From contig JBAZJV010000002.1 in the NCBI GenBank assembly GCA_041651095.1, positions 43,621-107,620 on the forward strand: a stretch of 64,000 nucleotides of DNA. The letters run 5' to 3'. Source of the stretch: Patescibacteria group bacterium (GTDB lineage: Bacteria; Patescibacteriota; Patescibacteriia; Patescibacteriales; UBA12465). Position numbers and translations under genes: made by a program. Positions 806-13,321 of the stretch are shown piece by piece (within the stretch, counting starts at the first letter, position 1; each line of letters starts with the position of its first letter). The notes under the pieces were generated by a model. That model worked only from the letters and a program-made list of their open reading frames with translations, was not told where the DNA came from and searched no databases.

Positions 806-2932
806 TTAGGTAGCTGACGGCACTTCAGATGGTACTTGAGTAGTAAAATACCAATTTAAAATATCCTTGGCAATGGGCGCGGCAATCGCGCTCCCTTCCA
901 CGCCTTCTTCGACCAGGACGGCAATGACGATTTGCGGCTGGTCATAGGGGGCGAAACCGATGAACCAGGCGTGCGGCCCTTTCTTGGTCGACCACTGCGC
1001 CGTGCCGGTCTTGCCGGCGACGGCGACAGGCAGGCTGTTCAAGGAACGGGCGCTCCCTAAGGTAATGGTCTCGCGCATGCCTTCACGCACGATTTCCAAA
1101 TTCGCCGGATCAATAAAATTTCGGCGCAGCACTTTCGGCTGGACTGCCTGGACCAGAGAATTATCCGGCGCCAGGATCTCACTGACCAGATGCGGCTCAT
1201 ACAAGGTACCGCCGTTAGCGATGGCCGTCGTGTAATTGGCGACTTGGAGCGGCGTGACCAGGACGTCGCCCTGACCGATGGCGAAATGGTAAGTATCGCC
1301 GATATACCAGGGTTCTTTCTTGGTCTGCTCTTTCCAGTCGGCCGTTGGTACGAAGCCGGGCCGCTCGCCCGGCAAGTCCACGCCGGTGATTTCGCCCAAG
1401 CCGAAGAGCCGCGCGTATTTTACCAGGCCGCTCACGCCCAAGCCTTTGAAATCGCCGTAACCGCCGCCGATATAATAGAAGAAAGTGTTGACCGACCAGG
1501 CCAGCGCCGTCTTGACGTTGGTCAGGCCATGGCCGCCGGCTTTCCAGTCCGGGAAGAACCATTCGCCGATGCGCAGGCCGCCGGTCGAAAGCATGGTGGT
1601 CGCGGCCGTAATGATCTTGTCCTGCAAAGCGCCGGAGGCGAAGATCGGCTTGATGGTGGAGCCGGACGGGAATTCCCCGCTCACCGCGCGGTTGAACAAG
1701 GGATGATCGGGATCGTTCAAGAATTTATCGTAATCCGCCTGGCTGATGCCTTTGGCGAACAGATTATTATTATAGCTGGGCAGGCTGACTAGAGCCAGAA
1801 TCTCGCCGTTATTCGGATTCATCACGATGACCGCGGCCCGGTGCAGATTCGCTTTCTTCAGATAGGCCTGGGTTACTTCTTCGGCTTTCTGCTGCAGCGC
1901 GGCGTTGAGCGACAATTTCAGGTTATAGCCATCGCGCGCCGGCACTTCGTTGATTATCTTCTTCTGGCGGCCGAGCGCGTCCACTTCGATATTCTTCTTG
2001 CCCGGCGAGCCTTTGAGTTCTTTTTCCCAGGCGTACTCAATGCCCATCTTGCCGACGTAATCGATGGGCGAATAGTCGGCGCCGGCCGTCTGCAATTCGG
2101 CGTCGCTGATCTTGCCGGTATAGCCCAGGATATGGGAAAAGCTGCTTTCGCCGAGCACGGTCGGGCTGGAAGAAGCGACGGGCAAGAGGTATTCCCGCCG
2201 AATCTTGTTGGTCAGATAGACGCCCGGCCACTCCGACAAGTGCAGCATGATGAGCATGGCCCGGTCGTAGTCGATATTATCGGCGACGAACAAAGGCTGG
2301 TATGATTCCAGAGAACCGATTTTTACTTTGGAGAGCGCGTCTTTGAGCTGATAGAAAGTCGCGTTGTCGGCCACGATGTCGACCGGCGAAGCAGCGCCGG
2401 GCGCGGACAAACGGGCGGCGACGGCCACGGTCGAAGTGCCGGATAAAAGGCCGCTAATCTGGCGCAGCAGGTTATCGCGGGCCAACTCGTCGCGCGGCAG
2501 GTCTATTGGTTTAAAATAGAGCACGAAGTTGGCCTTATTGCGGACTAAGGGTTGCCGGTCGCTGGTATAGATGATGCCGCGCTTGGGCTCGATGGTTTCG
2601 GCGCGTAGCCGGTTGCCTTCGGAAAGCAGGCTGTAGTAGTCGTTCTTGGTCACCTGCAGCCAGAAGACGCGGCCGCCCAGGATGATAAAGGCCAGGAGGG
2701 CGGCGAGAGCGAAATATTTCAAACGGCGCAGATCAAAAGAGCGGGTAACCATTTCCTTGTGGCTGGTATCGACCAGGTACGAGCCTTCGGCCCAGTCGGC
2801 ATAGTAAAAAGAATCCTTGAGTTCGCCAAAAGGCAGCTTGCCTTCCTGCACTAGAAAAGGATCTTCGTCCTTGGGGCGCAGGGACTCGATAAGCTTGTTT
2901 TTCTTGGCCATTCTGAAGAATTTCGGGCTCAT
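806..2932 (-). CDS. mrdA: Penicillin-binding protein 2 / peptidoglycan D,D-transpeptidase
   Basis: 708 aa with an N-terminal TM anchor. The transpeptidase triad is present: SGSTIKP (SxxK), WSVN (SxN) and KTGTA (KTG). An alternative start at MAKKNK is possible. Confidence 0.85.
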   Translation of the reverse strand: MSPKFFRMAKKNKLIESLRPKDEDPFLVQEGKLPFGELKDSFYYADWAEGSYLVDTSHKEMVTRSFDLRRLKYFALAALLAFIILGGRVFWLQVTKNDYYSLLSEGNRLRAETIEPKRGIIYTSDRQPLVRNKANFVLYFKPIDLPRDELARDNLLRQISGLLSGTSTVAVAARLSAPGAASPVDIVADNATFYQLKDALSKVKIGSLESYQPLFVADNIDYDRAMLIMLHLSEWPGVYLTNKIRREYLLPVASSSPTVLGESSFSHILGYTGKISDAELQTAGADYSPIDYVGKMGIEYAWEKELKGSPGKKNIEVDALGRQKKIINEVPARDGYNLKLSLNAALQQKAEEVTQAYLKKANLHRAAVIVMNPNNGEILALVSLPSYNNNLFAKGISQADYDKFLNDPDHPLFNRAVSGEFPSGSTIKPIFASGALQDKIITAATTMLSTGGLRIGEWFFPDWKAGGHGLTNVKTALAWSVNTFFYYIGGGYGDFKGLGVSGLVKYARLFGLGEITGVDLPGERPGFVPTADWKEQTKKEPWYIGDTYHFAIGQGDVLVTPLQVANYTTAIANGGTLYEPHLVSEILAPDNSLVQAVQPKVLRRNFIDPANLEIVREGMRETITLGSARSLNSLPVAVAGKTGTAQWSTKKGPHAWFIGFAPYDQPQIVIAVLVEEGVEGSAIAAPIAKDILNWYFTTQVPSEVPSAT

Positions 2933-3067
2933 ATCTTTTCCTTATTCTATCGCGGATCAGGAGAAAGGGCAAGAAAGGAAAATGAGGGGGATTTTATGGG
3001 GAGAGGTGGTTGTTATATATAATAAACTATGATAAAATTATTATATAATTTTTTTAATAAAAAAATT

Positions 3068-3142
3068 ATGAAAAAAGTTTCAAAAAAACTGGCCAAAGCT
3101 GTGGCTCAAGCTGTTGGCAACTGGATTCCTTGGAGAGACTAG
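3068..3142 (+). CDS. Small ORF, 24 aa (MKKVSKKLAKAVAQAVGNWIPWRD), candidate precursor or small membrane-active peptide
   Basis: The ATG at 3068 is preceded by an AT-rich region containing tataat. The peptide has a Lys-rich amphipathic N-terminus and a C-terminal NWIPWRD. A strong hairpin and then an isoprenoid-synthase-like gene follow. It is too short to appear in the ORF track. Confidence 0.3.
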   Translation: MKKVSKKLAKAVAQAVGNWIPWRD

Positions 3143-3151
3143 CCAAAAAAT

Positions 3152-3184
3152 AAAAAGCGCCTTAGAAGGTGCTTTTTATTTTAA
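3152..3184 (+). terminator. Hairpin plus T-tract (intrinsic terminator or attenuator) between the small ORF and the downstream enzyme gene
   Basis: aaaaagcgcc-ttagaa-ggtgcttttt forms a 10-bp stem with one G-U pair, followed by attttaaa. Confidence 0.5.
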
Positions 3185-3194
3185 ACATAAAAAT

Positions 3195-3995
3195 ATGAAA
3201 ATAGAAAACATTATTGCGAACTGGCCTAAATTATTTTTGGAGGCTTTAACAGAAAAAAGGGACAACAATCTTATTAAAATATTATCTTCAGCTAATAAAT
3301 ACTGGTGGCTAGCTTATAATATATATGATGATATATTAGATGGAGATAGCGATGCGTTTCAACTTCCAATAGCAAATAATTACTTTATAAAATTTATATC
3401 CAGTTATTATAAACTAAATTTACCGAAGCAATTCTATCAAATTTTTGAAAAAACAATAACTAATGTAGAAAAGGCAAATAAATTAGAATTAAAGCAACAA
3501 AAATTAAAATTTAATGATGGTAAAATTATAATTCCCCAAATATTACCGGGGTTTACTGATTTAAAAATGCTATCTAAAAAATCATTAGCGTTATCATTAG
3601 GACCAATAGCTATAGCATACTATCTAAATTTAGGTCAGAGGAAAGTAAATTTATGTATAGAATTTTTTAAAAATTTTTTAGCTGCGAAACAATTATCTGA
3701 TGATGCACATGATTGGCTGGAAGATTTACAATCTGGCAAGATTACCGCCGCTAATAGCCTAATTCTAAAGGAGGCTAGGACTAATAAAATAGTTTTAGAT
3801 TTAAATAATCAACAATCATTATTTAAATTATTTTTAAAAATTAACTCTACAACTGGTAAAAATGTAATTAAACTATGCAAACAAGCCAATAAACTAGCAC
3901 TTAGAATCGGCTTACAAAAAAATTGCAAATTTCTCAATATCACTATAATTCCTATTCAAAATGCCGCGAACAGAGCTCTAAAGATCAATAACTAG
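3195..3995 (+). CDS. Class I isoprenoid-synthase-fold protein (ComQ / polyprenyl-synthase / terpene-synthase-like), divergent
   Basis: There are two Asp-rich motifs about 124 residues apart: YDDILDGDSD (nt 3327-3341, DDxxD) and KQLSDDAHDWLEDL (nt 3699-3725, DDxxD / DDxxDxxxD). The protein looks all-helical and AT-rich. I start it at the ATG at 3195 (MKIENIIANW) because the track start at TTG 3114 overlaps the small ORF and the hairpin. Confidence 0.45.
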   Translation: MKIENIIANWPKLFLEALTEKRDNNLIKILSSANKYWWLAYNIYDDILDGDSDAFQLPIANNYFIKFISSYYKLNLPKQFYQIFEKTITNVEKANKLELKQQKLKFNDGKIIIPQILPGFTDLKMLSKKSLALSLGPIAIAYYLNLGQRKVNLCIEFFKNFLAAKQLSDDAHDWLEDLQSGKITAANSLILKEARTNKIVLDLNNQQSLFKLFLKINSTTGKNVIKLCKQANKLALRIGLQKNCKFLNITIIPIQNAANRALKINN

Positions 3996-4016
3996 GACTA
4001 CTAATATCTAATCTAA

Positions 4017-4199
4017 ATCAACTATAAACCCGCATTCGACATGCGGGTTTATGATAAATATACGCTTAAAGAAGGAAGCGCACTTGAGAGACGAAAACTA
4101 CTAGCAAACCCTAGAAGCAGAATAGTACTAAAAAAAGAAGCTAACACTGTTAGAAAAATAAAAAACATCGGTATTAGTCAGATGTTTTTTAATAGATAG
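4017..4199 (+). pseudogene. 3' gene remnant, possibly the C-terminal part of a large serine recombinase (copy 1)
   Basis: The open frame reads INYKPAFDMRVYDKYTLKEGSALERRKLLANPRSRIVLKKEANTVRK... It has no plausible N-terminus and is about 75% nt-identical over about 90 nt to the fragment at 8135-8230. The ...LLxxLxSxIxLKDKKL pattern recalls recombinase C-termini from memory only. Confidence 0.3.
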
Positions 4200-4403
4200 A
4201 TTCTTTTACATCTTTTCACTGGAAATATCAAAAAATCTCTCAAAGAAGCTAGTTAACTTATTTAAAACGCTTTCTCTCTTTTTCCCATAACCACCAGGAG
4301 AAAATCATGATGGTTTATTTACCATAATTTTTGTTATTGCCGTCACTGTTGTAGTAACACTGCCATCACTAAAAGCATTTTTTATAAATGTATAAGTGGC
4401 ATC

Positions 4404-4919
4404 TTAACCAAGCTTATTCTCATCCATCAATATAACGACTAAAGCGTTGAGAGTTATATAACCATTTTTAATTAGAAGGTTATCTCTTTTGTCATTTGGA
4501 TTTTTACTGCCATGAAATAAGTTATTTCTGATAACATGCCAAAATTCAATCATGTTTTTCCAGTCATCCAAATTTCTTATTTTGCCTCGTTCATTAATAT
4601 TAGAGTAATCCCAATATTTCAAACCATGTACTATATCACTATTCTGATCCACTTCGCCTATCGGTAATTTATCTAACTCATTTTTTATTTTTGTCCACGA
4701 AGAATTTAAAATGCCATCTTTTACTTTTTCGATATATAAGGATTTAACATATTCATCATTTTTGAGTTTCCTTAAGGCTTTCCAATCTTCATTTTGATCT
4801 ATATATATTTTTCTTTTTAGCAAAGCAATAAAAGCTAGATATTCAAAAATAAATTTAGAAAAATATTCTTCTTCCGATGCTTTAGCGTGCCAATTTTTTA
4901 TCAGGTTATCAAAATTCAT
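4404..4919 (-). CDS. HEPN-domain protein (putative RNase), fourth gene of the OLD/UvrD operon
   Basis: 171 aa. An Rx4H motif sits in FWHVIRNNLFHGSKN (R131/H136, His codon at 4512-4514) in a C-terminal helical context. The start lies 1 nt after the stop of the upstream gene. Confidence 0.55.
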   Translation of the reverse strand: MNFDNLIKNWHAKASEEEYFSKFIFEYLAFIALLKRKIYIDQNEDWKALRKLKNDEYVKSLYIEKVKDGILNSSWTKIKNELDKLPIGEVDQNSDIVHGLKYWDYSNINERGKIRNLDDWKNMIEFWHVIRNNLFHGSKNPNDKRDNLLIKNGYITLNALVVILMDENKLG

Positions 4920-4920
4920 A

Positions 4921-5367
4921 TTATTTTATATTATTTTTTCCTATTTCTTTGCTTGCAATATTATGAACTGTCTTTGCTTTTGTTTTTATGTCGTCTGGTA
5001 ATTCAATTAACATAATCTCTATATCTAATGGGGTTTTACCAGTCGATATTCTTTTAAAAAAATTATAAAAATTTTTATTAGTTAAAACTAATATTTTTCT
5101 TTTTGCTTTAACTAACGACAACATGTATATGTCAAAATAGATTGATTTTACCGATCCTACTCCCGCCCTGCCATTTTCTCTAGTCTGATGTGACTTGATA
5201 TCCCCGATAATATTTTTATCTAGCGACACTATATCAAATTTATGGCTTCCCCCAGTCACTAATTTCAATTTTATGTCTTTATTATAAAACTCACATCCTA
5301 TTTTTTCTCTCAGTCTCTCCCTGACATAGGGCTCAATTAGCTGCGATAATATTTTTGTATTTGCCAT
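4921..5367 (-). CDS. Small PD-(D/E)xK-like (restriction-endonuclease-fold) protein, third gene of the operon
   Basis: 148 aa. It has N-terminal helix acidic residues (EPYVRERLRE), then KFDIVS (D45) and IIGDIKS (D56-x-K58), which is the classical D...(D/E)xK spacing. It lies 6 nt downstream of the helicase stop. Confidence 0.4.
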   Translation of the reverse strand: MANTKILSQLIEPYVRERLREKIGCEFYNKDIKLKLVTGGSHKFDIVSLDKNIIGDIKSHQTRENGRAGVGSVKSIYFDIYMLSLVKAKRKILVLTNKNFYNFFKRISTGKTPLDIEIMLIELPDDIKTKAKTVHNIASKEIGKNNIK

Positions 5368-5373
5368 ATATTT

Positions 5374-6423
5374 TTAATCTATAACAAATACTACACTATA
5401 TTTTGCTCTAGTAACGGCCACATATAACTTTGGGATGTCGCCAGCCTTTGAAATGTCGTTAGTGCTTAAATATGTTAACATTGGTTTTGTCGGGAAAATT
5501 AAAACTCTATCATATGTAAGCCCTTTTGAAACGCCAATGTTAATAGCGCGCAAACCCATTGAATCCGAATCTATTCTATATTTTAATATTGCAGGTTTAA
5601 ACTTTTCTACATAACTTAAAACATCTTTTCCCGCAATGTTAAAAATTCCATCGTGACCTGTTATCTCAATATTAGTTGACGTTGTCTTTGGCATATTAGG
5701 AAATAACGCGTCAGCAAAATCACATATTTTTTGATTACATCGATGACATTCACATTTTTCTTCCAACGAAATTAATTTCTTTTTTTCTAATTCCTTCGCC
5801 CAGTAAAAAATTCCCCCTCTTTTAAATTTTCTATTCTTTGAAGAGTTATTAGTGCTAAACGTAGACTGACGCGGGTCGCCAACTGCTGTTATAAAAATAT
5901 TGGAATTAAAAAGTTTTTCCATAATATTTAAATCATAGCCAGATAAATCCTGCAGCTCATCGACGAAAACAAAATCGTAATTTTTCTGAAGACGATGAAT
6001 TACTAAACCACTGCTCATATCGTCTACATGGACAACAAATTCTGAAACTCTATCTCGGAATATATCATTATTTTCAGAAACAAAATAAGTTTTTGCATGT
6101 TCTTTTCTTGAATATTTTACGTAATTTGGTAAATTGGAGAATATAATTCCATTAATTCGCTGCTCAATAATAATATTTTGATATGGATGTACCCCATCTT
6201 GAAAAAGAAAAGTGTACCAAGAAAGTATGGTTACGTTTTTAGGAACGTGGCCAATTTTTTTAATAAAAAATCCTCTAATTTGTTCCAAATTTTCATTGGT
6301 ATAAGTAGTAATTAATATTTTTTTGTCGGGTAATTTCAATGCCTCATTAACAATAAATGTTGTTTTACCTGATCCAGCGCTTGCAATAACAATTTTATTT
6401 TTATGAGATAGCGTCGTTGACAT
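5374..6423 (-). CDS. Compact UvrD/Rep-like SF1 helicase (GajB-like)
   Basis: SF1 motifs are present: ASAGSGKTT (I), ITTYTNE (Ia), FVFVDELQDLSGYD (II), AVGDPRQS (III) and LYVAVTRAKYSVVFV (VI). The likely start is the ATG at 6423 (MSTTLSHKNK), which overlaps the OLD gene's 3' end by 23 nt. The track start at 6456 is a TTG. Confidence 0.8.
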   Translation of the reverse strand: MSTTLSHKNKIVIASAGSGKTTFIVNEALKLPDKKILITTYTNENLEQIRGFFIKKIGHVPKNVTILSWYTFLFQDGVHPYQNIIIEQRINGIIFSNLPNYVKYSRKEHAKTYFVSENNDIFRDRVSEFVVHVDDMSSGLVIHRLQKNYDFVFVDELQDLSGYDLNIMEKLFNSNIFITAVGDPRQSTFSTNNSSKNRKFKRGGIFYWAKELEKKKLISLEEKCECHRCNQKICDFADALFPNMPKTTSTNIEITGHDGIFNIAGKDVLSYVEKFKPAILKYRIDSDSMGLRAINIGVSKGLTYDRVLIFPTKPMLTYLSTNDISKAGDIPKLYVAVTRAKYSVVFVID

Positions 6424-8005
6424 AATCTGGCATATTAATACTTTCTTCGCTCTCAAATATTTTTAAGGCACAGTCTGTTTTATTATTCTCCATATACTGT
6501 ACAAGTGCTTTTTTATCTTTCTTGGTTCCAAAAATTTTATTCAATACGGCTATATCATTGCAGGCGACAATATTTGGCTCTAATGTATTCAATTTATTGT
6601 CATCGCTAGAACATACTTTTATTCTGCCCGTGCCTATATACGCTTCATATTTTTCAATTACATTTTTTTGATAATCATGATCATTATCAGTAACAACAAC
6701 TACATCCTTACCCAGTTCTTTTGCAATATCCAAAAATCTAGTGAAAGAAAGTCCTCTAACATTTATAACATCTACGCCATCTTCGATTGGCAATTTCCCA
6801 TACTTCATGATATATGCTTTCTGAATTAAAAGTTCATCAGACGGTCCTTCTACTAATATTGATTTATTCGCCAAAATTAGTCTTAGAGTATCGTACCCAG
6901 AAAGTTTTTTAAAATAATTTTGAGTATCAATTGGTAAATTTCTTAAAAAGGCTTTGTTGTTATTATAAATAAAAATAAGTTTGTCTATCCCCAACTTATT
7001 CAAAACATAGGCACTGTGGGTTGTTATAAATATTTGCTTGCCTCCACACCTATTTTTTATTTTACTTATAAGTTTATTCATTGAAGAAAAAGACAGGTGA
7101 TTTTCTGGTTCCTCAATTAAAATTACATCTGATTTATCGGCCTGTCTTTCTAAGGCTAACATTATTTTTAAAGCGTTTTGTTCTCCTTGGCCGGCTAACT
7201 GAAACGGGATACCGTCTAAATGAGGCACCAGGTTAGTTTCCCAATTTGCTTTTTGTGAAATATCAATCGATATCGCGAGGTCTTTATCAGTGATTACCCC
7301 TTTGCGCTCTGTTAGTTTGTCATTAATGCCCTTTATTGATGGCTCATCAGAAAATTTTTCTTTTAAACTCCTGTAAGTAATAGCAAGAGCCACTTTTTCT
7401 CTGGCTTCCAGGCCGCTATTTATTATATTCTGCAAATAATAGTCTGTTCCGCTTTGCAGACGTATAGATGTCGCATCTATGAAAGATGTATTTACAGGAA
7501 AACTTCTTGGAGCTACGGATTTATTTGCAAATGAGTGCCAGTAGATTTTATAATATTCTGTTGGGATCATCTTAATTTCGGCTCTATTTTCTAGTAATTT
7601 ACTATAATCATCTCTGTAGTCTTCATCAAATGTAATTTCCACCTTAACTCCTGGGCAATCTTCTCTTTCTGAATTATTATTACCAATCAATATTTCAGTT
7701 CCTTCAATTTCAGAAAAATATAACTCAATAATTATTTTTGGTAAGTCTGGATTCCCCCCTTTGTATATATTAGACAAATAGTCATTAACGCATTCCTTAT
7801 TAAACAAGTAGGGCGATAGCTCCGTTTCTGCGAACCTCCCATTAATCTTTTTTGTTAAGGCTAGATTTATTGCCTCAAGAATTGTAGACTTACCAACTTC
7901 ATTATTGCCAACTAAAATATTTAAATCTGAATTAAAATCCAGGGTAAATAATTGGAAAAGTTTATAATTCTGTATCTTGATTTTTTTTATCATAGAAATA
8001 ATCAA
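6401..8005 (-). CDS. OLD-family ATP-dependent endonuclease (ABC-type ATPase + Toprim; GajA-like)
   Basis: 534 aa. It has Walker A GNNEVGKST, signature/Walker B region LIEEPENHLS, FITTHS, and a C-terminal Toprim domain with ILVEGPSDELL and VVVVTDNDHD. Confidence 0.85.
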   Translation of the reverse strand: MIISMIKKIKIQNYKLFQLFTLDFNSDLNILVGNNEVGKSTILEAINLALTKKINGRFAETELSPYLFNKECVNDYLSNIYKGGNPDLPKIIIELYFSEIEGTEILIGNNNSEREDCPGVKVEITFDEDYRDDYSKLLENRAEIKMIPTEYYKIYWHSFANKSVAPRSFPVNTSFIDATSIRLQSGTDYYLQNIINSGLEAREKVALAITYRSLKEKFSDEPSIKGINDKLTERKGVITDKDLAISIDISQKANWETNLVPHLDGIPFQLAGQGEQNALKIMLALERQADKSDVILIEEPENHLSFSSMNKLISKIKNRCGGKQIFITTHSAYVLNKLGIDKLIFIYNNNKAFLRNLPIDTQNYFKKLSGYDTLRLILANKSILVEGPSDELLIQKAYIMKYGKLPIEDGVDVINVRGLSFTRFLDIAKELGKDVVVVTDNDHDYQKNVIEKYEAYIGTGRIKVCSSDDNKLNTLEPNIVACNDIAVLNKIFGTKKDKKALVQYMENNKTDCALKIFESEESINMPDYVNDAIS

Positions 8006-8056
8006 TTATAGCTATATTCGAATTTAAAAATTTAGTATCAAAATAAAATTTTCTAA

Positions 8057-8264
8057 AGGGATTACCCCCCCTCCCAGGATATTCGAGTGTTTTATATAAA
8101 TATCCAACAAACGACCCGTCATAATGAAAACGCCAAACCCGCAGTCGATATGCTGGTTTATGCTAAATATGTACTTAAAGAAGGATATGCCCTTGAAAAA
8201 CGGGAGTTGCTGGCTAATTTGAAAAAATAGGATTATATTAAAAGATAAAAAGTTGTTATATTGA
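8057..8264 (+). pseudogene. 3' gene remnant, possibly a large serine recombinase C-terminus, frameshifted (copy 2)
   Basis: The frame reads ...ENAKPAVDMLVYAKYVLKEGYALEKRELLANLKK* (stop at 8228-8230) and continues in the +1 frame as RIILKDKKLLY* (8229-8264). It is homologous to 4026-4130. It overlaps the 3' end of the convergent R-M gene. Confidence 0.3.
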
Positions 8265-10580
8265 AGATGAGTACGGCAGAGATTTTATATAATTTTCAAT
8301 AAATTTCCAATCAGGGTCTTTACCATTTGCTGGCAACTTTATACTCCTTTCTTTTAAGCGAGTTTGACTAGCTTTTCTTCCATAATTATACCTATAACGT
8401 TCCAAATTAATAATGGTAGCTAAAAATAAACCGATATATTTATTCATCTTAAATTTTGGACACAATTTTTCTACGTGATCGCTGGCGGAAAAATTAAACG
8501 GTTGATAAGCACAAAATCCCAAAACAGCACTATCAACAGTTAATATGTTGCCAGCTTCTGTATGATAATTATAAAAACCAGCAATGCCATTATTCGTTGC
8601 CTGAGTAGTCACAAATGGAAATTCCCCTTCACCAAATTCTTCTAAATCAAGAATTGATGTTGTTTTACTGCCAGTAATATTAAAAAGTTTGTCCAACGAA
8701 AAACTCTTCCATTTTTTTACTTCCAATTCGTACTTATTTTTGTTAACCGGATTAGAAAGAATATTATTTGTCATTTGATTAGACAGAAGAAACGAACAAT
8801 ATTCTACTAATGTTTTTTCAAAATCTTTTCTAACTAGACCAGAATAGTCTGTTTCCATATATGCCTCCGGGCACCATTCATCTTTTGCTGTTATCTCTTT
8901 AGTTACACTGAATCCAGGAATAGTTTCTCTGTTTTGATAATTAACTATCCACTTGTTTTTTATTTTTCTTTCAAATTCTTCATATAAATCAATCCGCCCT
9001 TTAGTTTTTCTTTTTACAAAACCATCTTTCTTATAATAGCCAAAATAAGTCTTTTTCCCTGCTGGATGTGGTCTTTTGGCCGTAAAAACCATTACACAGG
9101 CAACAACTCCGACATCAGAATTAAAAAATAATTCGTCAGGCATGCTAAACACCGCCTCAAGGGTGTGCTGACTTAAAAGTTTCTTTTTCCATTCATATAT
9201 ACGACCAGATTGAGCTAATGCGCTTTGCATTGGCACAATAGCAACGCATTTACCGCCCTGCACCAAACATTCCAAGTTATCAAATACGAACTCCAACTCT
9301 TCAGTATCCTTTTTCTTGTCAGATTTATAAGGGGGGTTAAGTAATCCGGCAGTTGGTTTAAATTTTTTTACTTTTTTGATTATCTCACCATCAAGACAGC
9401 TACCATTTAAAATATTACTCTTCCCGTCTTGATGAATAAACATGTTGCTACAAGCCAAAACAAATATATGCGCCTGATACTCAACACCCACTAGCTGATT
9501 CTTTTTTATATTTTTTATTTTACGCAAATCATCTTTCGCATCTTCTATCATTATACTCATTGCCGAAACAAGAAATCCGCCAGTTCCAACACAATTATCA
9601 TATACAATGGAATCTTTATTAACCTCGGCAATTCGCGCCATAAACTCGGTAATATGAAGAGGTGTCAAAACTATCCCGAGCCCTTTATCACTATTAGCAT
9701 AACGCAAAAATTCTATATACAATTGGCCTAAAACATCAATGTACTTATGTGTTTTAATAAAATCTTTAATATTTTCATTTATGCTAGAAATTATATCTCT
9801 TAATACATTTGCCTTTTTTGACAAGGACGTATCTGTTTTGATAAAGGCGAGTCTGCCACTTATAACATCTAATTTTTCCTTCTGAATCCCACCGTTTTTA
9901 AACTCCATATCAACAGTATCAACCAAATATTTGGCCAAGTCCTCTGGCTTACTATAATTTTTATAAGATGCTTCAAATGCTTTGTTTTCTAACGCTATCA
10001 AAATACAAGCTATCAATAAAGCTCTTTCACTTTCTACTATTTTATGACTATGTAGCGTGTCATTTAAATCCTTGGAAAATATTATCAATTTATCGTAATC
10101 CTGTCTGAATTTTTCTGGACTCTTTATGTAGCCAGTTAGATACTCTTGTGAAGATAAAAATTTATCAGAAAACTTTGGCAATGCTTTTTGCTCACCTTTT
10201 AATTGTAAAAAGTGGGAAATTTTAAGTTCTTTTTTATTTTCCCCACTGACAGCTATAGACAATACATCATATTCCCTCGATAGATATGCTGAGTATAATA
10301 ATGCACCGTCAACAGCGTAATCTCTGTATTGATCTAGGGTGGAGCTTTCGTGTTTTTTAATATCCGCTTTGCATTCTACCAATATCAATAAATCGGGGTT
10401 ATTTCTAAATTGCATTATAAATTCTGGATGACCAGCTCCATTGCCAGCTTTAGACGCTGTTGATAATAATTTTTTAATTTTAGGATTGTCTGATGATTGC
10501 TCTTCAATAATTAATTCTGCTGTGTATTTCTTAAAATGTTCCCTGGTTATATTTTCAGTTTTTCTCTCATTTTTAGCCAT
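8256..10580 (-). CDS. Single-chain restriction-modification enzyme (Type IIG-like): N-terminal PD-ExK nuclease + gamma-class N6-adenine methyltransferase + C-terminal specificity (TRD) domain
   Basis: 774 aa. It has NNPDLLILVECKAD (PD...ExK), YDNCVGTGGFL (SAM motif I) and GLLNPPY (motif IV NPPY). The C-terminal 170 aa resemble an HsdS TRD (LDKLFNITGSKTT...FPFVTTQATNNGIAGFYN...RLKERSIKLP). Confidence 0.75.
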   Translation of the reverse strand: MAKNERKTENITREHFKKYTAELIIEEQSSDNPKIKKLLSTASKAGNGAGHPEFIMQFRNNPDLLILVECKADIKKHESSTLDQYRDYAVDGALLYSAYLSREYDVLSIAVSGENKKELKISHFLQLKGEQKALPKFSDKFLSSQEYLTGYIKSPEKFRQDYDKLIIFSKDLNDTLHSHKIVESERALLIACILIALENKAFEASYKNYSKPEDLAKYLVDTVDMEFKNGGIQKEKLDVISGRLAFIKTDTSLSKKANVLRDIISSINENIKDFIKTHKYIDVLGQLYIEFLRYANSDKGLGIVLTPLHITEFMARIAEVNKDSIVYDNCVGTGGFLVSAMSIMIEDAKDDLRKIKNIKKNQLVGVEYQAHIFVLACSNMFIHQDGKSNILNGSCLDGEIIKKVKKFKPTAGLLNPPYKSDKKKDTEELEFVFDNLECLVQGGKCVAIVPMQSALAQSGRIYEWKKKLLSQHTLEAVFSMPDELFFNSDVGVVACVMVFTAKRPHPAGKKTYFGYYKKDGFVKRKTKGRIDLYEEFERKIKNKWIVNYQNRETIPGFSVTKEITAKDEWCPEAYMETDYSGLVRKDFEKTLVEYCSFLLSNQMTNNILSNPVNKNKYELEVKKWKSFSLDKLFNITGSKTTSILDLEEFGEGEFPFVTTQATNNGIAGFYNYHTEAGNILTVDSAVLGFCAYQPFNFSASDHVEKLCPKFKMNKYIGLFLATIINLERYRYNYGRKASQTRLKERSIKLPANGKDPDWKFIENYIKSLPYSSSI

Positions 10581-10606
10581 ATTTTTATTTTTTTCTTTAT
10601 AGGGGT

Positions 10607-10615
10607 ATTATAGCA
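10607..10615 (-). promoter_or_regulatory. Extended -10 box (TGcTATAAT) inside the left TIR, facing the R-M gene
   Basis: The minus strand reads TGCTATAAT. The R-M ATG (10580) lies 26 nt downstream. Confidence 0.45.
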
Positions 10616-10756
10616 TTTTTTTAAAATATTCGTAACAGAAAAATAGCTACCAAAAAGCCCCGAAAATACAGGACTTCTGGGTCTATCCGATACCAAATTG
10701 TCTTAGCGGAGATAATAGGATTGGAACTTATAAAATAGGCTAAAATCCCCAAAAAA

Positions 10757-10765
10757 TGCTATAAT
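10757..10765 (+). promoter_or_regulatory. Extended -10 box (TGcTATAAT) inside the right TIR, facing mgtA
   Basis: The plus strand reads TGCTATAAT. The mgtA ATG (10802) lies 36 nt downstream. Confidence 0.45.
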
Positions 10766-10801
10766 ACCCCTATACTTGCCTAAGCTATTATAGCCTAATA
10801 T

Positions 10802-13321
10802 ATGCCCTACAAACTGGTTCCCACTGCGGACCTGAAAGCGCTCAGCCTGCAAGAGCTCTACCCCCTGGTCGGCTCCTCCCCGAAAGGGATGACGACCCAG
10901 GAAGCGATCGGCCGCTCCCAGGCCCTCGGCTATAACCAGATCTCGGCTGCCAAGCGCCGGCAGCCGGTCCTCTTGTTTTTCGGCTATTTCAAGGATCCGC
11001 TCATCATCATCCTGATTGTCGCCGCCCTCATTTCGGGGCTCACCGGCGAACTGCGGAGCATGGCCATCATCCTGTCCATGATCTTCCTGAGCGTCATCCT
11101 CAACTTCTATCAGGAGCATAAGTCCAGCAAGGCCGCCGAGAAGATCTCCCGCCGCCTGGCTATTCGCGCTAGCGTGCTCCGCGACGGCCAGAAGCAGGAC
11201 CTCGAAACCAAATACCTCGTGCCCGGCGATATCATTTCCCTCTCCGCCGGCGACATCGTGCCGGCGGACGGCAAGATTATCAGCGCCACCGATTTCTTCC
11301 TGAACGAATCCAGCCTGACCGGCGAAAGCCTGCCCGCGGAAAAGACGGCCGGCGGCGACAGCACGATCTTCTCCGGCACCAACGTCGTTTCCGGTTTCGG
11401 GGAATTCCTGGTGACCAGCATCGGCCTGCATACGGAATTCGGCCAGATCGCCCAGAAAATCGTCAAGCCCGCCACCGAGAACGCTTTTGAAAAAGGCATC
11501 AAGAGTTTCGGCTTCCTGATTATCCGGGTCATCGCCGTCATCGTCGCCATTATCTTCCTGATTAACGCCGTGATGCATAAAGGCATTCTGGATTCTTTCC
11601 TGTTCGCGCTCGCCATCGCCGTCGGCGTGACTCCGGAACTCCTGCCCATGATCATGTCGATTAATATGGCTAAGGGCGCGACCAAGATGGCCAAGAACGG
11701 CGTTTTGGTCAAGCGCCTCAATTCCATTCCTACTTTCGGCTCCATGGACGTCCTCTGCACGGATAAGACCGGCACCCTGACTGAAGACCACATTACGGTC
11801 ATCAAGCATATCGATATTTCCGGCGCGGACTCGCTCAGCGTTTTTACCGCCGCTTACCTCAACGGCTATTTCGAAACCGGCCTCAAGAGCATCCTGGACC
11901 AGGCAATCTTGGAATATAAGAAAATAGACGTCCGGGGCTATCAGAAAATAGAGGAGCTGCCCTATGACTTCAACCGCAAACGCTCGTCCATCATCTATGA
12001 GCACGGTGGCCGACTGACCCTGGTGACCAAAGGCGCGCCGGAAGAGATCTTCAAAATAAGCACGCGCTATTTCAGCGGCGAAGCCGAGCAGCCGCTCACG
12101 CCGGAGCTCCTCAAGCAGGCGAAAGCGACCTATGACGACCTGAGCCGCCAGGGCCTGCGCGTCCTGGCCATTGCCGAAAAGAAAATTACGGTCCGGCGGG
12201 ATAATTATACTTTAAGCGAAGAGCAGGGTCTGAGCCTGCGCGGCTTCATGGCCTTCTACGACCCGCCCAAAGCCGACGTCCGGGAAACCCTGGCCTTCAT
12301 GAAAAAGCACGGCGTGGCGATCAAGATCTTGACCGGCGACAGCCCCTTAGTCACCCAGAAGATCTGCGCCGATCTTGGCCTGGCCGTGGACCAGGTCATT
12401 AGCGGCGAAGAGTTGGATCTAAACCGCCTAACCGACGAGGAAGTCTACAAAAAGACCAAGGACGCTACGATTTGCGCCCGCCTCTCCCCGGGGCAGAAAG
12501 AGAAGATCATCATGGAACTGCGGCGTAAAGGCTTGACCGTCGGCTATTTGGGCGACGGCATAAACGACGCCCCGTCCCTGCAGACGGCGGATGTCGGCAT
12601 CTCGGTCAATAACGCCGTGGACGTGGCCAAGGAAACCGCCGATATCATTCTGCTCAAGAAAGGCCTGCGCGAACTCATGGCCGGCGTCATCGAGGGCCGC
12701 AAGACTTTCGGCAATACTATGAAATATTTGCTCATGGGCCTGAGTTCCAATTTCGGCAATATGTTCTCCATGATCGGCGCCAGCCTGTTCCTGCCCTTCT
12801 TCCCCATGACCGCCGGCCAGATCCTGCTCAATAATTTCCTCTATGACAATTCCCAGCTGTCTATACCCTCGGATAACGTCGACCCGGATTACCTGAAAAA
12901 GCCCAAGCACTGGGACATGTCTTTCATCAAGAAATTCATGCTGGTCTTCGGCCCGGTCAGCTCCCTGTTCGATTTCCTGACTTTCTTCGTCCTATACGGC
13001 GTGCTGCATCTCTCGGGCGGCGCTTTCCAAGCCGGCTGGTTCGTGGAATCTCTGGCCACCCAGGTTCTGGTCATCTACATCATCCGCACCCAGAAAATTC
13101 CTTTCCTGCAGTCTAAACCCAGCAAATACCTGCTGGCTACTACCCTGGCCGCCGTCGCCCTAAGCCTAGCGCTGGTCAGCCCCTGGCTGGGCGCCATTTT
13201 CGGCTTCGCGCCGCTGCCTTTGGTCGCTTTCTTATTCATCTTCATTATCGTCATCGCCTATCTCCTGGTCGTGGAATTCACCAAACAGCTGTTCTACCGG
13301 CGGCTGGCGGTAAAACATTAG
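10802..13321 (+). CDS. mgtA: Magnesium-translocating P-type ATPase
   Basis: 839 aa with CTDKTGTLTED (phosphorylation site), TGDS and GDGINDAPSL. The C-terminal NFLYDNSQLSIPSDNVDPDYLKKPKHWD is characteristic of the MgtA/MgtB subfamily. Confidence 0.85.
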   Translation: MPYKLVPTADLKALSLQELYPLVGSSPKGMTTQEAIGRSQALGYNQISAAKRRQPVLLFFGYFKDPLIIILIVAALISGLTGELRSMAIILSMIFLSVILNFYQEHKSSKAAEKISRRLAIRASVLRDGQKQDLETKYLVPGDIISLSAGDIVPADGKIISATDFFLNESSLTGESLPAEKTAGGDSTIFSGTNVVSGFGEFLVTSIGLHTEFGQIAQKIVKPATENAFEKGIKSFGFLIIRVIAVIVAIIFLINAVMHKGILDSFLFALAIAVGVTPELLPMIMSINMAKGATKMAKNGVLVKRLNSIPTFGSMDVLCTDKTGTLTEDHITVIKHIDISGADSLSVFTAAYLNGYFETGLKSILDQAILEYKKIDVRGYQKIEELPYDFNRKRSSIIYEHGGRLTLVTKGAPEEIFKISTRYFSGEAEQPLTPELLKQAKATYDDLSRQGLRVLAIAEKKITVRRDNYTLSEEQGLSLRGFMAFYDPPKADVRETLAFMKKHGVAIKILTGDSPLVTQKICADLGLAVDQVISGEELDLNRLTDEEVYKKTKDATICARLSPGQKEKIIMELRRKGLTVGYLGDGINDAPSLQTADVGISVNNAVDVAKETADIILLKKGLRELMAGVIEGRKTFGNTMKYLLMGLSSNFGNMFSMIGASLFLPFFPMTAGQILLNNFLYDNSQLSIPSDNVDPDYLKKPKHWDMSFIKKFMLVFGPVSSLFDFLTFFVLYGVLHLSGGAFQAGWFVESLATQVLVIYIIRTQKIPFLQSKPSKYLLATTLAAVALSLALVSPWLGAIFGFAPLPLVAFLFIFIIVIAYLLVVEFTKQLFYRRLAVKH

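Follow-up and report, generated by a model that had tools for sequence, protein, structure and literature searches.

A mobile pair of genes for a putative HEPN-like protein and a small partner protein in a low-GC defence island of a Patescibacteria group bacterium

The gene pair and its closest relative

The window analysed here is a stretch of 64,000 nucleotides (nt) from a Patescibacteria group bacterium (GTDB lineage UBA12465; GenBank assembly GCA_041651095.1, contig JBAZJV010000002.1, positions 43,621 to 107,620 of the forward strand). It possesses two small adjacent genes for proteins of 148 and 171 amino acids (aa), whose families are termed F148 and F171 below. The original prediction described their products as two putative nucleases, one PD-(D/E)xK-like and one of the HEPN type with an Rx4H motif, encoded a single nucleotide apart. 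Both open reading frames (ORFs) are present, on the minus strand, and their coordinates and the motifs quoted for them are confirmed by reading the sequence. The gap of 1 nt is likewise correct; the order had to be reversed, as on the minus strand the 148-aa gene comes first and the 171-aa gene second. Across the junction the coding strand reads ...AAA TAA T ATG AAT..., with position 4920 as the only nucleotide between stop and start (Table 1).

Both genes are real and not chance ORFs, because each has hundreds of homologs and because comparison with the closest relative gives ratios of nonsynonymous to synonymous substitution rates (dN/dS) of 0.07 (148-aa gene) and 0.11 (171-aa gene), at dS values of 0.5-0.8. 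In the database, the copy of both proteins stems from a contig of a Patescibacteria metagenome-assembled genome and is labelled hypothetical. The relative in question, locus L119, is the only other locus with F148 and F171 together. It contains, in this order, a shortened 385-aa gene (94-465), a DUF2188 gene, F148 and F171; the 1-nt spacer of the window recurs here, one gene ending at 1414 and the other starting at 1416. DNA homology between the two loci begins 6 nt ahead of the 148-aa ATG and ends with the stop codon of the 171-aa gene. Since this homology lies within different flanks and dN/dS is low, the pair is a real, mobile and selected two-gene unit in this lineage. The translational coupling proposed earlier gains support for the same lineage, in which the spacer is unchanged and the genes move as a unit of 970 bp.

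The closest F148 clade shares 72-89% identity. Purifying selection on the 148-aa gene persists in loci that lack the 171 gene (dN/dS 0.08-0.12). One of these, L004, carries a decayed remnant of the 5' end of F171, 22 codons long (10448-10513, VNFSQLIINWCIKIFK*DYFSK), straight after an intact F148, which shows an ancestral pair that lost its HEPN gene. In general, each gene can exist without the other.

Table 1. Coordinates of the gene pair and of neighbouring features in the window
Feature	Position	Strand	Remarks
Cassette, 970 bp	4404..5373	-	two genes and 6-nt leader; blastn 87% DNA identity to L119 962-1928, different flanks
148-aa gene (F148 family)	4921..5367	-	upstream cassette member; unannotated, putative alpha/beta protein
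171-aa gene (F171 family)	4404..4919	-	downstream cassette member; probable minimal HEPN-like protein
TAA-T-ATG junction	4919..4923	-	148-aa stop 4921-4923, spacer nt 4920, first base of 171-aa ATG 4919
171-aa motif R131-x4-H136	4512-4529	-	VIRNNLFHGSK; R131 = 4527-4529, H136 = 4512-4514
148-aa signature residues	E12 5332-5334; D45 5233-5235; D56 5200-5202; K58 5194-5196	-	KFDIVS (D45), IIGDIKS (D56, K58)
Short GajB-like UvrD-family helicase, 360 aa	5374..6456	-	PADLOC GajB 5e-114; Pfam UvrD-helicase; stop 6 nt ahead of 148-aa start
GajA-like OLD nuclease (ABC ATPase and TOPRIM), 534 aa	6401..8005	-	PADLOC GajA 1.8e-208; Pfam AAA_15, OLD-like_TOPRIM
Type IIG restriction-methyltransferase, 774 aa	8256..10580	-	PADLOC REase_MTase_IIG 1.7e-166; Pfam N6_Mtase (HsdM-type) and Methylase_S (HsdS-type specificity)
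Terminator-like hairpin, 12-bp stem	4024..4052	-	first such site past 171-aa gene on minus strand
83-nt direct repeat, copy 1	4026..4108	+	76% identical to copy 2; includes hairpin after 171-aa gene
83-nt direct repeat, copy 2	8135..8217	+	gap between Type IIG gene and GajA

The two proteins and their families

Homologs of the 171-aa protein (E<=1e-3) form at least 188 clusters, nearly all with lengths of 175-185 aa, and occur in several phyla, among them Patescibacteria, Omnitrophica, Deltaproteobacteria and other groups. In an alignment of 40 members the residues W10, H11, E26, R131, N133, L134, F135, H136, K139, R145 and D146 are invariant. The wider set of 182 near-full-length relatives also covers metagenomic sequences and extends to about 27% identity; each of R131, N133, F135, H136 and K139 is found in 181 of them and N132 in 179. 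The Rx4H motif is thus conserved among homologs, and invariance as near to absolute as this over such divergence is what a catalytic site looks like.

According to the HEPN survey of Anantharaman et al. 2013 (PMC3710099), the Rx4-6H motif lies where the penultimate helix ends or the loop behind it starts, a polar residue follows the arginine directly, helix 2 bears an acidic residue, typically as Ex3[KR], and helices 2 and 3 can be separated by inserts. The AlphaFold2 (AF2) model of the 171-aa protein is all-helical and confident (predicted local distance difference test, pLDDT, 91). It comprises helix 2 (19-38) with E26, a helical insert (45-84) followed by a hairpin, the penultimate helix (120-135) and the last helix (144-167). 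R131 to F135 end the penultimate helix and H136 opens the loop to the last one; N132 is the polar residue next to the arginine. E26, found in 166 of 177 aligned members, is embedded in E-Y-L-A-F and not in Ex3[KR].

The 171-aa protein is therefore called HEPN-like on motif and topology, an assignment we consider probable, since independent profile and fold comparisons are not significant. Foldseek finds no significant match of the model in BFVD. Alignments by hhalign with single AbiJ, AbiU2 and DUF4145 sequences are not significant either; they pair the Rx4H regions for DUF4145 and for a 385-aa neighbour protein described below, and not for AbiJ or AbiU2. Weak matches to PF07757 AdoMet_MTase occur in 19 of 40 members (best E 0.014) and are probably a coincidence of composition or motif. 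A protein of locus L079 (5956-6897) matches PF07757 via its N-terminus.

For F148, a word-indexed search yields 6 relatives and a full HMMER scan at least 408 representatives at E<=1e-3. Among 210 members E12 is conserved in 93%, D45 in 95%, D/E79 in 85% and T96 in 97%; E141 is present in 176 of 177 aligned members, and the N-terminus M-A-(N/D)-T is strongly conserved. The full E-D-(D/E)-K set of a PD-(D/E)xK nuclease is kept in the window protein and all its close relatives, and one sub-group shows the textbook pattern (e.g. ...NFDLVSED..IVAEVKSH).

Minimal PD-(D/E)xK nucleases measure about 140-150 aa, as exemplified by the archaeal Holliday-junction resolvase Hjc. The 148-aa protein resembles this type in size and in the succession of a glutamate in an N-terminal helix, followed by D and (D/E)xK on predicted strands that are next to each other in sequence. 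Unlike PD-(D/E)xK families, it has no sequence or profile match to any such family or PDB chain, most F148 members lack the second acid and the lysine, and the invariant T96 and E141 of F148 are not a hallmark of these nucleases.

Genomic surroundings of the families and of the cassette

The genomic home of F171 was surveyed in 83 further loci, in which restriction-modification (R-M) clusters were verified against precomputed Pfam calls. HsdM, HsdS or HsdR is encoded within three genes of F171 in at least 28 of the 83 and directly adjacent in at least 27, with HsdM upstream in at least 20 loci and HsdS downstream in at least 17; all these counts are lower bounds, because many contigs are short. 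The usual order is hsdM-F171-hsdS with overlaps of 4-11 nt, as in L009 and L007, where F171 shares 11 nt with hsdM and 4 nt with hsdS. PMC3510504 describes hsdM and hsdS of EcoKI as translationally coupled, so F171 is inserted into a coupled junction. Literature searches returned nothing specific on a minimal HEPN protein embedded between hsdM and hsdS. In the F171-carrying Type I operon of L009, hsdS is followed by genes for a weakly matching AbiU2-type HEPN protein and an AIPR protein (9747-12611), ahead of hsdR; that operon thus holds several inserts of abortive-infection (Abi) type.

HEPN RNases embedded in R-M operons are a known theme (PMC3710099). In its paradigm, PrrC, the R-M complex keeps the RNase silent until a phage anti-restriction factor frees it (PMC3710099), and the placement of F171 between hsdM and hsdS with overlapping stop and start codons suggests a similar logic. 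With the HEPN RNases of R-M operons (PrrC/RloC, Abi2/AbiD/F, AbiU2, solo AbiJ and ApeA; Anantharaman et al. 2013, PMC3710099) F171 shares R-N-x3-H with a polar residue after the arginine at the end of helix 3, an acidic residue in helix 2, the insert between helices 2 and 3 and the Type I R-M setting. It differs from them by the lack of a significant profile or fold match to a named HEPN family, by its length of only 171-185 aa without ABC-ATPase or N-terminal sensor domain, and by its specific site at the hsdM-hsdS junction with overlapping codons. PrrC has an N-terminal ABC-ATPase fused to HEPN, whereas the 171-aa protein is the helical domain only. Furthermore, the window copy is no longer part of an R-M operon and is coupled with a partner of 148 aa.

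F148 is found in more diverse surroundings. In L001 it follows a gene for a 385-aa protein (8813-9970) and precedes one for a 252-aa protein with two transmembrane segments and a hydrophobic N-terminus. In L006 the 385-aa gene (1920-3086) is followed by DUF2188 and F148, on an element carrying a serine recombinase and a Rep gene. The 385-aa protein of both loci contains the motif KKRRNDILHGSK, similar to IRNNLFHGSK of F171; to judge from this motif, the F148 neighbourhood may encode a second HEPN-like protein. The 385-aa protein has no match in Pfam or PDB, and an hhalign comparison of F171 with its motif region is not significant (E 0.034). L004 and L013 encode a 528-aa UvrD helicase with F148 1 nt later; in L039 the same UvrD type precedes P0283 (2411-3280), in which F148 is fused to HNH (HNH 3.2e-6). 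Distant F148 members follow or abut genes for a 601-aa UvrD helicase (L016), SIR2 and HerA-like proteins (L019), an AbiJ_NTD4 protein (L020) and a TPR-DUF4145 protein (L021); AbiJ and DUF4145 are HEPN families (PMC3710099). Two genes downstream of F148, L021 encodes a 1229-aa protein without Pfam match (7419-11108), whose GRNNAFH resembles the F171 motif, possibly by chance. F148 fusions (P0283, P0161, P0191, P0187 and P0137) comprise a C-terminal HNH domain, a C-terminal PDLIV..EVKK segment, an N-terminal winged helix-turn-helix (wHTH; HTH_45) and a C-terminal DUF7662 or DUF7669.

F148 follows UvrD-like helicases of three types at a distance of 1-6 nt (window, L004/L039 and L016), an arrangement that recalls helicase-nuclease pairs and fusions of the RecB/AddA type; unlike these, only about 5 of 28 distinct F148 loci have a helicase, and no RecB-family motifs are detectable. 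F148 also starts 0-8 nt past the stop codons of unrelated genes (L016, L020, L026, L029, L040 and L122). Metabolic sites of this family include hutU/amidohydrolase, CoA-transferase subunit/thiolase and positions downstream of luciferase-like oxidoreductase genes, and one member is surrounded by small hypothetical genes on a plasmid of Azospirillum. The spacing of 0-8 nt behind unrelated stops suggests that F148 genes insert precisely behind stop codons. In L006 (3520-3570) and L119 (915-965) a tRNA/tmRNA-like 3' end, GGGGTTCAATTCCCCTCATCCGC, ends 8-9 nt ahead of the F148 ATG. Rfam gives a weak match to the tmRNA 3' end (E 0.01) and ARAGORN no full gene there; it looks like what is left of an integrative element's att site. 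The island of L001 and L004 begins past a cluster of tmRNA, tRNA-Leu and tRNA-Gly. Neither family has a relative in the viral contigs or phage GenBank records searched, and by these comparisons both belong to the host and not to phage.

In the window, the cassette is part of a low-GC island of about 7.7 kb (about 2950-10650, about 30% GC) within flanking DNA of about 55% GC, bordered by genes for a penicillin-binding protein (806-2932) and a P-type ATPase (10802-13321). The minus-strand order is Type IIG, GajA, short GajB, 148-aa gene, 171-aa gene. No terminator-like site is present on the minus strand between GajA and the 171-aa gene, and the cassette is likely co-transcribed with GajA/GajB. 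The 83-nt direct repeat of Table 1 brackets exactly GajA-GajB-148-171 and occurs in two copies in 64 kb, against 0 expected; it is not found in the 119 loci examined. As the copies differ apparently synonymously for a plus-strand peptide (MRVYDKYTLKEGSALERRKLLA and MLVYAKYVLKEGYALEKRELLA), they may be what remains of a gene's 5' ends. Neither a tRNA gene nor an integrase is encoded in the island, at whose border, upstream of the Type IIG gene, a perfect 24-nt inverted repeat (10598-10621 / 10751-10774) is located. A 293-aa ORF (3114-3995, plus strand) inside the island is convergent to the cassette; its Asp-rich YDDILDGD and SDDAHDWLEDL recall DDxxD motifs, and it has no match in Pfam, PADLOC, NCBIfam or PHROGs.

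A bona fide GajA/GajB pair has the same orientation as the cassette, which the original prediction regarded as embedded in the larger operon. Gabija consists of two genes, GajA and GajB, according to the literature, in which our searches found nothing specific on extra Gabija genes. The short-GajB subtype is present on 776 plasmids, and the two loci inspected (Xanthomonas and Nocardioides plasmids) are plain two-gene systems. The Nocardioides plasmid pNOCA01 (L121) carries a CoiA-family gene (5286-5891) 230 nt after the short-GajB Gabija pair, either a small nuclease-like gene or a coincidence. L119 possesses the cassette without any Gabija gene, and its homology with the window stops exactly at the GajB stop codon.

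Interpretation and significance

We read the 148-171 pair as a mobile two-gene defence cassette, composed of an abortive-infection effector (171-aa) and a partner (148-aa), that became attached to a Gabija operon at its 3' end within a horizontally acquired low-GC defence island; the probability of this reading is put at roughly 40%. The 171-aa product would be a minimal HEPN-type, metal-independent RNase, probably dimeric. It would act as a latent suicide or anti-phage effector, silenced by its partner and freed when the first line of defence is attacked. The 148-aa product would be a small alpha/beta protein with an acidic site that takes the role of partner in this lineage; it may bind or cut nucleic acid and may gate, or cooperate with, the adjacent effector through physical interaction. 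In sister loci the HEPN gene beside the 148 module is replaced by a fused HNH domain (L039) or a membrane protein (L001), or was lost (L004).

Several observations speak against this interpretation. Hidden Markov model searches of all fetched loci place F171 in 84 loci and F148 in 34, with both together only in the window (L119 was obtained separately and later). Many F148 genes stand alone inside metabolic operons, unlike what a pure role as regulator of an adjacent effector predicts. In a crude test, the motif R[NDH]xxxH is not significantly enriched among F148 neighbours (8/64 versus 22/298). The 171-aa gene of the window lies outside any Type I R-M operon, the nearest R-M gene being the Type IIG enzyme 3.3 kb upstream. 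Neither protein has a match in Pfam, PADLOC, NCBIfam, PHROGs or the PDB sequence search. For F171, 40 relatives and 10 distant relatives give no recurrent informative match in the family libraries, a PDB profile search returns nothing relevant, and the best Foldseek match of the confident model in PDB is the HEPN protein AbiV at a non-significant E=4.8. The HEPN assignment of the original prediction thus stands on the conservation and position of Rx4H, and its link to a named HEPN family finds no support from profile or structure searches. For F148, a Pfam scan of 79 members gives no recurrent match over the 148 region even at E<=10, and PDB searches with three different profiles give none. 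The AF2 model, built from a 6-sequence alignment, is unreliable (pLDDT 51, residues 28-89 unresolved), and Foldseek with it is uninformative. Across 210 members position 56 is acidic in only 25%, K58 is present in 44% and the full E-D-(D/E)-K set in 17% (the full signature was counted in 37 of 238 members). The PD-(D/E)xK claim is consequently half refuted at the family level, in its (D/E)xK part, and partly supported by the intact set in the clade of the window.

The pair may instead consist of two independent genes, a self-contained and possibly selfish nuclease gene (148-aa) and a separate gene for a HEPN Abi protein acting singly (171-aa), brought together by a lineage-specific accident of island assembly. 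The starts of F148 0-8 nt after the stops of hutU, a CoA-transferase subunit, luciferase-like oxidoreductases and helicases fit this; most F148 members have no conserved neighbour, some reside on a plasmid or on an integrative element beside a tmRNA-like 3' fragment, and F171 has a typical context of its own. We nevertheless hold it to be unlikely: the exact pair and its 1-nt spacer are kept across two insertion contexts despite dS of 0.5-0.8, and an effector-like gene or domain repeatedly occupies the position behind the 148 module within the closest clade.

Slightly less likely is a classical type II toxin-antitoxin (TA) system, in which the 171-aa HEPN toxin would be held by the 148-aa antitoxin, encoded upstream, made first and translationally coupled. 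The antitoxin-first order with a 1-nt spacer, the joint movement of both genes and the decay in L004, which kept 148 and lost 171 as expected of a TA pair, are in its favour, and a partner gene located 5' of a HEPN toxin gene is an arrangement already known (PMC3710099). The likeness extends to MNT-HEPN (HepT), where a small HEPN gene directly downstream of a small partner likewise forms a tight, mobile dyad; unlike there, the 148-aa partner has no NTP_transf_2 match and is no nucleotidyltransferase, and the co-occurrence of F148 with F171 is limited to one lineage. Such a distribution, with F171 in 83 other loci without F148 and F148 in 33 loci without F171, led us to reject the toxin/antitoxin-like pair of the original prediction as a conserved arrangement. 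Moreover, no MNT-type or other known antitoxin domain is found in Pfam, PADLOC or NCBIfam, the 148-aa gene is under strong purifying selection where the 171 gene is missing, and fusions of the 148 module to HNH or wHTH would be unusual in a dedicated antitoxin.

A bolder proposal, which we regard as doubtful, takes F148 for an unrecognised small mobile gene, a stand-alone nuclease-like module inserting 0-8 nt behind unrelated stop codons in metabolic and defence operons and borrowing their expression. In candidate-phyla bacteria it would supply the constant half, used for 'docking', of modular defence cassettes whose variable half is a minimal HEPN RNase (window), an HNH domain or a membrane protein; in parallel, F171 would be a minimal PrrC-like guard at the coupled hsdM-hsdS junction.

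That neither protein is a nuclease, the 171-aa protein being a non-catalytic helical adaptor of methyltransferase or specificity subunits and the 148-aa protein a non-enzymatic binding module, appears improbable. It would agree with the absence of homology to a characterised enzyme in the searches made, with the loss of the canonical lysine and second acid in most F148 members and with the weak PF07757 matches of F171. The motif residues of F171 (R131, N133, H136, K139 and N132) are, however, nearly invariant down to about 27% identity, and F148 keeps E12, D45, T96 and E141 in 93-99% of its members. Finally, that both proteins are accessory subunits adding nucleases to this Gabija variant is very improbable and was rejected, despite the tight packing of four genes (gaps of 6 and 1 nt, no internal terminator), the bracketing 83-nt repeat and the other UvrD-like helicases followed by F148, because the cassette exists without Gabija in L119, where homology ends at the GajB stop, because the same subtype exists as a plain two-gene system without the cassette on plasmids, and because the literature knows two genes.

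Both HEPN dyads and R-M operons with HEPN RNases are already known; F171, F148 and their cassette are unannotated in every library searched. Should the preferred reading of a mobile effector-partner cassette fail, two conserved hypothetical genes in a defence island, outside Gabija, would remain. If it is true, F171 would be a widespread, unannotated minimal HEPN family (at least 188 clusters) set in the coupled hsdM-hsdS junction, and the idea of a suicide RNase guarded by R-M in the manner of PrrC would become testable with a protein of about 175 aa. F148 (at least 408 representatives) would be a new partner module beside or fused to several nuclease or effector types, and could be a new sensor, adaptor or small nuclease. 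The cassette would then also be a concrete case of defence-module recombination in the small genomes of candidate-phyla bacteria.

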